Part shown: positions 48,903 through 50,255 of the stretch, piece after piece
Layout of the letters: each line of letters opens with the position of its first letter
How positions within the stretch are numbered: position 1 is the first letter of the stretch
From: an uncultured Clostridia bacterium
Lineage (GTDB): Bacteria; Bacillota; JAAYKD01; CAYOCI01
Assembly (NCBI GenBank): GCA_964402415.1
Contig: CAYOCI010000001.1
Span: 14,323 to 78,322, forward strand
Reading direction: 5' to 3'
DNA length: 64,000 nt
Translations under genes and position numbers: made by a program
Notes under the pieces: model-generated
Told to the model about the DNA's origin: nothing
What the model saw: the letters and a program-made list of their open reading frames with translations, nothing else
Databases searched by the model: none

Positions 48903-50255
48903 TCAAGGTCCATCGACCTTGATGACATTTCCCCCCGCGGCTTTGGACAAGCGGTTCATAATAGCTTGCCCTAGCCCCGCTTCGGGGACCCCTTGGGCGA
49001 GGATTAGGTCAACGCCTTCTTCATCGAAGCGGCGCAAGGCGTCGTAGATGCCGTTGGCGATGTTCCGAAGGTCTTCGGGCGAGTAAGCGGCGTCTGGGTC
49101 ATGAATGTCGTTGGCCTGTAGCCAATCCAGGTGCGGGTTTCTGCGCAGCCAACACGACGAGCCGCAGGGCTCGGCCTCCTCTGTGGACTGTGGACTGTAG
49201 GCTGTGGACCCTGTCAATACAATGACAGTATCCCCTGGCATGAAAGCCACGGATGAGGTCAGCATGACACCGACCCTGCGTCCGGCATCTTGCTCAGCCG
49301 AGGCTCTTTCAGATATGGCCCGGACCACGGCCTCGCGGGGTCCGACGTACAGCGTCATCGGCGCCTGCGGGGCGTAGTGGGTGTATTTCATGCCAGGAGA
49401 ACGTGGAACGTTCTCGGGCTGTAGGGGCGCTGCCATGCGGCGCCCGCGGTTCTTAGTTTCATCGTCGATACCCTTTGGGGCAAAGTCGCGATCTGCCTGG
49501 TGCGGAACGGTCCCACCCTCGGCTGGGCCTCGACCAGGCGGGCGCTGCATGGCGGTGCCCCTACAGGACTGCCGCTGCTCGCGCGTAACAATCGCCGGGT
49601 CCACGGCTATTGTCACACCGAGCGCGGTCTCAATCGTTTCCTTGGTCACGCCACCGGGGCGAAGGATCATGGGTGGATCGCAGGTTACGTCTAGGACCGT
49701 CGATTCTACACCTACCGAGCAGGGGCCCGCATCGAGGATTACCTCGACCTTGCCCCAGAGGTCTTCGACGACGTGTTCGGCGCGGGTGGGGCTGGGACGC
49801 CCGGAGCGGTTGGCGCTGGGCGCGGCCACGGGCACTCCGGATGCTGCTATCAGGGCGAGTGCCACCGGATGATCGGGCATGCGCACGGCCACGGTCTCGA
49901 GTCCGGCCGTGACCTCGTTGGGGATAGATGCAGCCCGCGGCAGCACCAAGGTGAGAGGGCCCGGCCAGAAGTGGCGCATGAGCTGTTCGGCAATGGGTGG
50001 AACGGAGTTCACGATGTTATGTAGGTTGTCCAACGACGCAATATGAACGATCAGGGGGTTGTCAGCGGGGCGCCCTTTGGCGGCGAAGATGCGCTTGACC
50101 GCTTGCGGATCGAGCGCATTGCCGCCCAGGCCATAGACGGTCTCCGTGGGAAAAGCCACCGTCTGTCCCTCCCGGAGGGCGACGGCGGCTGTTTCGATGG
50201 CAGCGGGGTCGATATGGAGCGGATCGAGATGAAATAGCTTGGTCATGTGGATCAT
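48903..50255 (-). CDS. tsaC: L-threonylcarbamoyladenylate synthase (Sua5/YwlC/TsaC, long form) with repeat-derived in-frame inserts
   Basis: YrdC domain (TETVYGLGGNALDPQAVKRIFAAKGRPADNPLIVHIA) plus a Sua5 C-terminal domain (GMKYTHYAP). The product is 450 aa and carries in-frame segments encoded by repeat elements (CRGTAMQRPPG, RGRRMAAPLQ, GSTAYSPQSTEE). Confidence 0.75.
   Translation of the reverse strand: MIHMTKLFHLDPLHIDPAAIETAAVALREGQTVAFPTETVYGLGGNALDPQAVKRIFAAKGRPADNPLIVHIASLDNLHNIVNSVPPIAEQLMRHFWPGPLTLVLPRAASIPNEVTAGLETVAVRMPDHPVALALIAASGVPVAAPSANRSGRPSPTRAEHVVEDLWGKVEVILDAGPCSVGVESTVLDVTCDPPMILRPGGVTKETIETALGVTIAVDPAIVTREQRQSCRGTAMQRPPGRGPAEGGTVPHQADRDFAPKGIDDETKNRGRRMAAPLQPENVPRSPGMKYTHYAPQAPMTLYVGPREAVVRAISERASAEQDAGRRVGVMLTSSVAFMPGDTVIVLTGSTAYSPQSTEEAEPCGSSCWLRRNPHLDWLQANDIHDPDAAYSPEDLRNIANGIYDALRRFDEEGVDLILAQGVPEAGLGQAIMNRLSKAAGGNVIKVDGP

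Follow-up and report, generated by a model that had tools for sequence, protein, structure and literature searches.

The gene for threonylcarbamoyl-AMP synthase, sua5, on the 64-kb stretch of bacterial DNA analysed here (the window, to which all coordinates refer) encodes a protein ~95 amino acids longer than its orthologues of ~350 amino acids, which raises the question of where the extra residues come from and how the enzyme bears them. A preliminary description of the locus had put the excess at about 100 residues, close to the figure that we obtained by orthologue alignment, and had attributed it to small repeats of intergenic type, read in frame as linker peptides within an undisrupted enzyme. 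The results below make it likely that dispersed stem-loops tagged with GTAG, together with arrays of 7-nt units (heptamers), have been inserted at permissive sites of sua5 and of a second gene, prmC, kept only in frame and stop-free, and translated as disordered loops, and that the resident copies are young and turned over.

The sua5 open reading frame (ORF; 48903..50255, minus strand) is 450 aa long. Its two Pfam matches, Sua5_yciO_yrdC at aa 26-201 (the YrdC/TsaC-like catalytic domain; 49653..50180, minus strand, E=1e-63) and Sua5_C at aa 280-441, share one frame, as expected if the extra segments are in frame and stop-free. The true start is likely the ATG at 50246 (MTKLF...), not 50255, because the 447-aa database copy and both close relatives of the protein begin MT(K/Q)LF. 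The two-domain architecture of the TsaC2 type is complete: YrdC/TsaC-like domain, lid linker with the PGM and HY motifs, and SUA5 Rossmann domain. The boundaries of the inserts were set by alignment to 10, then 43 orthologues, in which every invariant Sua5 residue proved to be present and the ORF intact, and the segments extra to the ~350-aa orthologues fell at aa ~223-283 and aa ~349-392. The best-matching named Sua5 proteins, those of Effusibacillus, Symbiobacterium and Pelotomaculum, are only ~46-48% identical.

The first segment contains a doublet (insert 1; aa 231-279, 49419..49566, minus strand) that resembles the REPINs formed by pairs of repetitive extragenic palindromic (REP) sequences, as seen by inverted-repeat search, RNA folding and codon view. 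It consists of two inverted 29-nt arms, 90% complementary to one another, each being a GTAG-tagged stem-loop, with a 90-nt spacer between them that has no second copy within the 64-kb window. As RNA, the insert is predicted to fold into a single long hairpin (-93.7 kcal/mol, z = -4.3). Both arms carry a copy of the 25-mer GGGCGCTGCATGGCGGCGCCCCTAC. Copy A (49540..49564, plus strand, 1 mismatch) is read by the codons TGT AGG GGC ACC GCC ATG CAG CGC CC as C-R-G-T-A-M-Q-R-P, and copy B (49421..49445, minus strand, 2 mismatches) by GGG CGC CGC ATG GCA GCG CCC CTA C as G-R-R-M-A-A-P-L, in agreement with the in-frame peptides C-R-G-T-A-M-Q-R-P-P-G and R-G-R-R-M-A-A-P-L-Q given in the preliminary description. 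A different origin, by inverted self-duplication of the YrdC region of sua5, was considered and rejected, the underlying 27-nt, 81% match (49462-49488 versus 49745-49771) being a chance one (blastn-short E about 15).

Insert 1 lies between VDPA and the invariant motif P-x-x-P-G-M-K-Y-x-H-Y-A-P, which follows directly downstream as P-R-S-P-G-M-K-Y-T-H-Y-A-P (aa 284-296; 49368..49406, minus strand; invariant alignment columns). The linker of Sua5 acts as a lid over the active site; its conserved part, PGM…HY, is essential, as established for the PGM and HY motifs of Pa-Sua5, and its N-terminal part is variable or disordered in solved structures (PMC6004061). Insert 1 sits in this variable N-terminal half of the lid linker, upstream of PGMKYTHYAP; the tether is therefore longer, and the PGM...HY motifs are untouched.

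The second segment (insert 2) differs in place and in composition. In the structural model described below, it lies between a β-strand (…VIVL) and the next helix of the SUA5 Rossmann domain, so that the proposal that the repeats occupy inter-domain linkers holds for insert 1 and fails for insert 2, which is inside a domain loop. Its first 15 residues (aa 349-363, nt 49167-49211), the variable part, hold a heptamer array with a short tail. In gene sense this array is TCCACAG x4 (49181..49209, minus strand; period 7, 4.1 copies by Tandem Repeats Finder, TRF). It stands single, without a partner arm, and is read as G-S-T-A-Y-S-P-Q-S-T-E, matching the C-terminal TCCACAG array that had been reported earlier. 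The remaining two thirds of insert 2 are a conserved block of 32 aa, CGSSCWLRRNPHLDWLQANDIHDPDAAYSPED (aa 364-395; 49071..49166, minus strand). A copy search found no other copy of it within the window, and it is not a recognizable repeat; ~32 of the ~95 extra residues are thus not repeat-derived, and this block had been overlooked when the extra segments were all ascribed to repeats, an ascription that stands for insert 1 and the array. The alignments likewise give a divided answer on ancestral conservation: the segments, the block included, are missing from the ~350-aa orthologues, and aa 364-395 are conserved in the close relatives, with C-x3-C-x6-H-x9-H retained as a pattern by the three species alike. 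These comparisons indicate that the block is a selected, lineage-specific addition; that it is an older insert that has since been domesticated is conceivable but doubtful. It could also be a small metal-binding or structural addition.

The families to which the repeats in sua5 belong populate the extragenic DNA of the window, as their description as intergenic-type repeats implied. The 25-mer GGGCGCTGCATGGCGGCGCCCCTAC has 6 matches at up to 3 mismatches in the window against 0 expected from shuffled sequence. At up to 6 mismatches there are 10 copies in the 64 kb, two in sua5, two in the prmC ORF and six extragenic, although extragenic DNA is a minority of the window. The extragenic copies lie between rpiB and ywlE (48194..48218, minus strand) and at 21820-21844, 30594-30618, 36912-36936 and 40438-40462, with a degenerate one at 21769-21793. 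On the sense strand of sua5 the 25-mer reads GTAG followed by a 9-bp stem with a 3-nt loop; the consensus is predicted to fold with -13 to -18 kcal/mol, depending on the strand, and GTAG (CTAC on the opposite strand) is found on all copies in the window. Being a short palindrome with a GTAG end and dispersed, mostly extragenic copies, the 25-mer appears by its sequence to fit the signature of GTAG-tagged REPs (PMC3733652). The inverted pair in sua5 folds as one hairpin, and the remaining copies are singletons or lie within heptamer arms.

The heptamers are still more abundant. The window has 24 dimers of TCCACAG where 0.63 would be expected, a ~40-fold excess, and TRF returned 77 rows, mostly of period-7 or period-8 arrays, often of ~4 units, with unit families that include CTGTGGA, CGAGGGG, GGGACTA, CATCAGG, AATTCTT, GACTTAT and others. 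Nearly all arrays are intergenic, and they frequently form inverted pairs giving stems of 28-40 bp, which often flank a GTAG stem-loop. Two such hairpins border sua5 itself, one made of inverted CATCAGG / CTGATGC arrays just downstream (48743..48898) and a similar one of the AATTCTT type upstream (50264-50403). The composites measure 180-220 bp with arms of 28-40 nt. A scan of the whole window against Rfam at the gathering thresholds gave no match, and a known RNA family was rejected for the repeats on this result.

The stem-loop type is widespread and not restricted to one lineage, because the exact 25-mer GTAGGGGCGCNGCCATGCNGCGCCC, which has 2 degenerate positions, is present in 38 JGI metagenome contigs (loci L083-L120) that span 39-70% GC. 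These copies are often full GTAG...CTAC palindromes adjoining other GTAG-tagged hairpins, and in some low-GC contigs they adjoin heptamer arrays (ATAGTGG/CCACCAT). The presence of the same REP-like sequence in such dissimilar genomes is unusual for REPs. Candidates for in-frame copies in the metagenomes were rejected, since the ORFs enclosing the 25-mer in 10 contigs have no flanking domains, and we regard the copies there as extragenic.

Inserts of the same kind are found in prmC, whose 444-aa ORF (51777..53111, minus strand) lies two genes from sua5 and has repeat-derived segments at its N-terminus, between its domains and in its C-terminal tail. Domain matches put PrmC_N at aa 76-145, with the methyltransferase following at aa 259-340, and the PrmC proteins of other Bacillota match it in two blocks that directly adjoin in those proteins. 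The internal composite (52347..52564, minus strand; ~70 aa, aa ~183-257) consists of (CCCCTCG)4, a spacer, a GTAG-type stem-loop (52428-52452) and (CGAGGGG)4, with a predicted RNA fold of -147 kcal/mol (z = -8.3). A further composite, (CCCCTCG)4, (TCCACAG)3, a GTAG stem-loop (52981-53005) and (CGAGGGG)4 (52915..53091, minus strand), lies within the first 66 codons, and there is no in-frame start codon between it and the conserved prmC domain. An array of the CATCAGG type (51793..51812, minus strand) forms part of the C-terminal tail. Since prmC shows the same pattern, in-frame repeat inserts are not specific to sua5.

If the inserts are repeats on the move, related genomes should tell whether the sites or their contents are conserved. 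Only two close relatives of the protein were found: P0002 (73% identity, 473 aa), from an NCBI genome assembly (locus L081) with the same gene order, and P0003 (64% identity, 500 aa), from the Logan assembly of a sequencing run (locus L082). Both carry inserts at exactly the two sua5 sites, always in frame, with different lengths and sequences. At the site of insert 1, where the window has two inverted GTAG stem-loops without heptamer arms, L081 has (TAGTCCC)n, a spacer, a GTAG stem-loop and (CTAGGGA)n, and L082 has (CAAAGGC)n, a truncated GTAG stem-loop and (CCTTTGG)n. In the variable part of insert 2, the (TCCACAG)4 array of the window corresponds in L081 to an orthologous (T/A)CCACAG array, read as E-S-T-D-H-R-P-Q-S-T, plus 12 further residues, and in L082 to a whole composite of an array, a GTAG stem-loop and a GGGACTA-type array; the 32-aa block is retained in all three. 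In the PrmC of L081, too, inserts lie at the same places as in the window but with other arm units; the internal one has the homologous core CP(A/T)SSGP, the arm units TAGTCCC/GGGACTA and a GTAG stem-loop in the opposite orientation to that of the window. Arms are perfect or near-perfect within each species, but their units differ between species, and the prmC arrays are 100% perfect although interspecies synonymous sites are saturated. Because near-perfect arms use different units across species with saturated synonymous sites, the resident elements appear to be much younger than the species split; the sites, by contrast, appear to be old, since they are common to species just 64-73% identical.

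Such matched arms might instead have been kept for a role of the RNA or DNA itself, as RNase III sites, as an inter-domain translational pause or in mRNA stability, with translation a side effect. The very stable folds predicted for sua5 insert 1 and for the internal prmC composite speak for such a role, as do the complementarity of arms within each species despite their differing units and the location of both internal inserts, in sua5 and prmC, at domain boundaries. Every extragenic copy of the families forms hairpins too, however, so that no gene-specific selection is needed, recent origin explains perfect arms equally well, and insert 2 of sua5 lacks a partner arm in the window. We therefore consider a retained nucleic-acid function unlikely as the reason for the inserts, and favour young repeats tolerated at old permissive sites.

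Next comes the question of what the extra residues mean for the protein. Comparisons with the relatives, for all of which dS (the synonymous rate) is about 1 or more, gave ratios of nonsynonymous to synonymous substitution (dN/dS) of 0.05-0.11 for the YrdC domain, 0.04-0.18 for the SUA5 parts and 0.05-0.12 for the 32-aa block, with dS saturated in the block. Insert 1 and the variable part of insert 2 gave about 0.6-1.1 or were unalignable. The low dN/dS in the domains and the block shows that sua5 is under strong purifying selection, in a single frame, on either side of the inserts; the gene would therefore be functional and the frame downstream of the array the translated one, while the repeat-derived parts evolve without constraint at the protein level. 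An AlphaFold2 (AF2) model built from a 44-sequence alignment has a mean pLDDT (predicted local distance difference test score) of 81, with domains above 90 and residues 235-279 and 351-385 below 50. It superposes on the Sua5 of P. abyssi (6f87) with a template-modelling (TM) score of 0.93 normalized to the target, and also on those of S. tokodaii and T. maritima, its fold matching 6f87, 3aje and 9d3h; the inserts are thus predicted to be disordered excursions from a normal Sua5 fold. Flanking purifying selection and this predicted fold both suggest that, as had been supposed, the enzyme is not disrupted.

Alternatively, Sua5 might long ago have gained the extra segments as functional extensions in this lineage, for example to lengthen the tether of the lid or to add a mini-domain, and their resemblance to repeats would be secondary. 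Both sites are indeed common to three species at a dS of about 1, and aa 364-395 are truly conserved and selected. Outside this block, though, the inserts cannot be aligned between species and have a dN/dS of about 1, they are built from extragenic 25-mer and heptamer units, their arm units differ across species yet match within each, and AF2 predicts the segments to be disordered. An origin of the inserts as functional extensions is accordingly improbable, and repeat insertion with later turnover remains the preferred explanation.

Whether the repeats are translated can be asked of the stop codons that some units contain. Five arrays of the TAG-containing GGGACTA/TAGTCCC family lie inside sua5 and prmC of L081 and L082. 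In them, all units whose TAG would be in frame (7/7) have CAG or TCG in its place, and out-of-frame TAG has been kept in 13/14 and lost in 1/14 (Fisher about 7e-5). The intragenic arrays of the window belong only to TCCACAG, CCCCTCG/CGAGGGG and CATCAGG, whose 7-codon sense cycle has no stop, and the stop-containing families GGGACTA, AATTCTT and GACTTAT occur in the window only between genes. Sense-oriented GTAG copies within genes all read NGT-AGG-GGC, avoiding the TAG frame. Selection has thus removed the in-frame stops of the repeat units.

The same pattern bears on a reading in which the inserts are not translated at all, either because they are cut out of the mRNA or because the ribosome skips them, as with T4 gene 60 or the mitochondrial 'byp' elements; the inserts, being GC-rich, hairpin-forming, short and mobile-looking, have a superficial likeness to byps. 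Excision or bypass is disfavoured because skipping would need neither the purging of stops nor the keeping of frame, and the downstream domain is in frame every time (3 species x 2 sua5 sites, 2 species x 2-3 prmC sites); we hold it to be very improbable. Decay of sua5 into a pseudogene, or misassembly, is barely credible: repeats are classic sites of metagenomic misassembly and the relatives come from uncultured samples (a GCA accession for L081, a Logan run for L082), but the ORF is intact with all invariant residues and a dN/dS of 0.04-0.18, the array is followed by the conserved block without a shift of frame, and the two insert sites are shared by three independent assemblies (the window, the NCBI genome assembly and the Logan run).

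These results suggest how translated repeats may have come to reside in essential genes. Most repeat copies lie between genes, and a few would have entered sua5 and prmC where extra peptide is tolerated, namely in the variable part of the Sua5 lid linker, in a surface loop of the SUA5 domain and, in PrmC, between the domains and at both ends. Survival would have been limited to versions with no stop and no loss of frame, which would be transcribed and translated with the host gene as disordered loops that add nothing specific to the enzyme. At these permissive sites the residents would be replaced or remodelled again and again, whether through fresh insertions, slippage or gene conversion by copies elsewhere, and they may also attract newcomers. 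By analogy with the systems of PMC3733652 and PMC3116915, the mobilizer might be a REP-associated tyrosine transposase (RAYT) of the HUH type, encoded elsewhere in the genome and cutting single-stranded hairpins at GTAG.

Several observations weigh against this account. No RAYT, Y1_Tnp or other transposase is found in any ORF of the 64-kb window. There is no consistent target-site duplication, such as goes with the terminal inverted repeats of MITEs (non-coding elements of 50-500 bp), and a 12-nt direct repeat around the insert, seen in L082 only, may be what is left of an earlier array. The shared sites could reflect one old insertion followed by conversion, instead of repeated insertion. The strong complementarity of arms inside coding sequence points to a possible role at the RNA level and not to neutrality. 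Finally, translation of the inserts and activity of the enzyme are deduced from sequence.

Repeats inserted in frame within genes are already known from Rickettsia and from other bacteria. GTAG-/CGTC-tagged REPs are 20-40-bp stem-loops that are extragenic for the most part; some fall wholly inside an ORF, where they occur singly, as dimers or in larger clusters and code for 20-82 aa, and a gene may have received two insertions. They have often been found in genes of nucleic-acid metabolism, including tRNA modification and repair, related species in some cases carry one at a shared site, and some copies form part of a longer palindrome (Di Nocera et al. 2013, PMC3733652). The elements in sua5 and prmC are like them in the GTAG stem-loop, the intragenic in-frame copies and the double insertion. 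They differ in combining the stem-loop with inverted heptamer arrays and in their host, as the groups in which Di Nocera and colleagues found GTAG repeats were Proteobacteria, Cyanobacteria, Chloroflexi and the PVC group, with Bacillota-like spore-formers not among them (PMC3733652). With REPINs (Bertels & Rainey 2011, PMC3116915) insert 1 of sua5 shares the inverted REP doublet that folds as one hairpin; REPINs, however, are extragenic, with short spacers and a cognate RAYT (PMC3116915), whereas insert 1 is intragenic, has a unique 90-nt spacer and has no RAYT in the window. The classic case is that of the Rickettsia palindromic elements (RPEs), which are found in frame in unrelated housekeeping genes, are translated and have been judged compatible with the host protein's fold and function (Ogata et al. 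2000, reviewed in PMC10969869). Unlike the inserts described here, these are ~150 bp long, each has a conserved peptide family, and their hosts are reduced intracellular genomes. There is no sequence relationship between the two: the peptides in sua5 and prmC are unconserved even between orthologues and the residents turn over, so that the likeness is functional only.

For the arrays, the closest counterparts are the short tandemly repeated repetitive (STRR) sequences of cyanobacteria and Xanthomonas (GGGGA(C/T)T, GGGAATC), which have 7-nt units with ~four copies preferred and are mostly intergenic, with some intragenic and sometimes inverted pairs (PMC4692102). The arrays of the window share the 7-nt units, the ~4 copies, the dispersal and the inverted pairs, and the GGGACT-type resembles the Nostoc unit, but they come from another host lineage and many of their families are not G-rich, so that an explanation by quadruplexes fails for them. 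Very small dispersed repeats nested in heptamer arrays were reportedly found in Nostoc by Elhai and colleagues in 2008. We know of no analysis of the translation of such heptamer arrays inside essential genes.

What is new here is limited to the host lineage, the joint presence of GTAG stem-loops and heptamer arms within essential genes, the pattern of stable sites with changing content and the signature of stop purging. No new principle is revealed. The locus nevertheless offers a clean comparative case of selfish or structural repeat DNA carried as translated sequence in two essential translation-related enzymes, in a type of spore-former for which GTAG-type repeats were previously uncatalogued, and the purging of stops from heptamer units provides a sequence-only test for the translation of inserts.

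There is also a consequence for annotation: pipelines will give over-long Sua5 and PrmC proteins here, and heptamer arrays inflate many ORF starts, so that N-termini are over-called. Many genes are directly preceded by a heptamer or octamer array without stops in the sense frame, which lengthens the called ORF by 15-90 codons; examples are wecB-like (41671-41699), glyA (46374-46400), DUF1779 (30217-30323), spoIID (27386-27416), flgG-like (22690-22718) and DUF1385 (55348-55371). The DUF1385 gene was rejected as a third host of an in-frame array, as its TTG start and good ribosome-binding site come after the array, and over-extension of the ORF is also the best reading of the arrays with which the glyA, wecB-like, spoIIID, spoIID and ywmB ORFs begin. 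Upstream of spoIIID (24318-24515) there is a 108-nt unit in 1.8 copies with 93% match, built of CCACAGA heptamers and AGTCCACA octamers, which inflates the spoIIID ORF to 174 aa, the SpoIIID domain starting only at aa 92.

Heptamer arms also surround full-size genes. The window has four paralogues of PF05635 (23S-rRNA-IVS protein / Avd-like four-helix bundle), at 25805-26170(-), 27493-27876(-), 43710-44144(-) and 55845-56282(+), which are 47-68% identical to one another. Inverted heptamer or octamer arms closely flank three of the four (25686-25717/26290-26321, 27384-27416/27964-27996 and 55826-55850/56338-56362, respectively, for the first, second and last of these genes). The other (43710-44144), together with an adjacent deaminase gene, is bracketed by arrays (43231-43259/44147-44175) and is absent from the upp-deaminase spacer of L081; an orthologous PF05635 cassette in L081 has different arm units. 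It is conceivable, though we think it doubtful, that heptamer hairpins, GTAG stem-loops and the four PF05635 cassettes are one structured mobile system, of which the cassettes are the full-size form and the sua5 and prmC inserts the miniature one, which repeatedly re-targets copies already in place. Permissive loops of essential genes would then act as stable landing pads with a continual exchange of contents. A 58-nt palindrome (25628-25685), 97% complementary and without a loop, with 29-nt arms, abuts the octamer arm of a PF05635 cassette at 25686.

The genes around sua5 run on the minus strand in the order prfA, prmC, amidohydrolase, sua5, ywlE (low-molecular-weight phosphatase), rpiB, DUF436, glyA and upp, which agrees with the Bacillus ywlC region, and the window also contains matches to the SpoIIID and SpoIID domains and a DUF1779 (TATA-box binding) ORF; the host lineage is a spore-former of the Bacillota type. 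Between upp / wecB-like and the DUF1779 ORF / murA there is an operon for a V/A-type ATPase (subunits I, K/c, E, C, F, A, B, D; 30724-39651, minus strand), at a position where, in the Bacillus-type gene order, the F-type atp operon stands. A 1362-aa ORF (59147-63235, minus strand) with C-terminal Glucodextran_B and Cu_amine_oxidN1 has internal repeats of 90-158 nt in common with the next ORF (63470-63937, minus strand), and the two probably encode a pair of cell-surface proteins.

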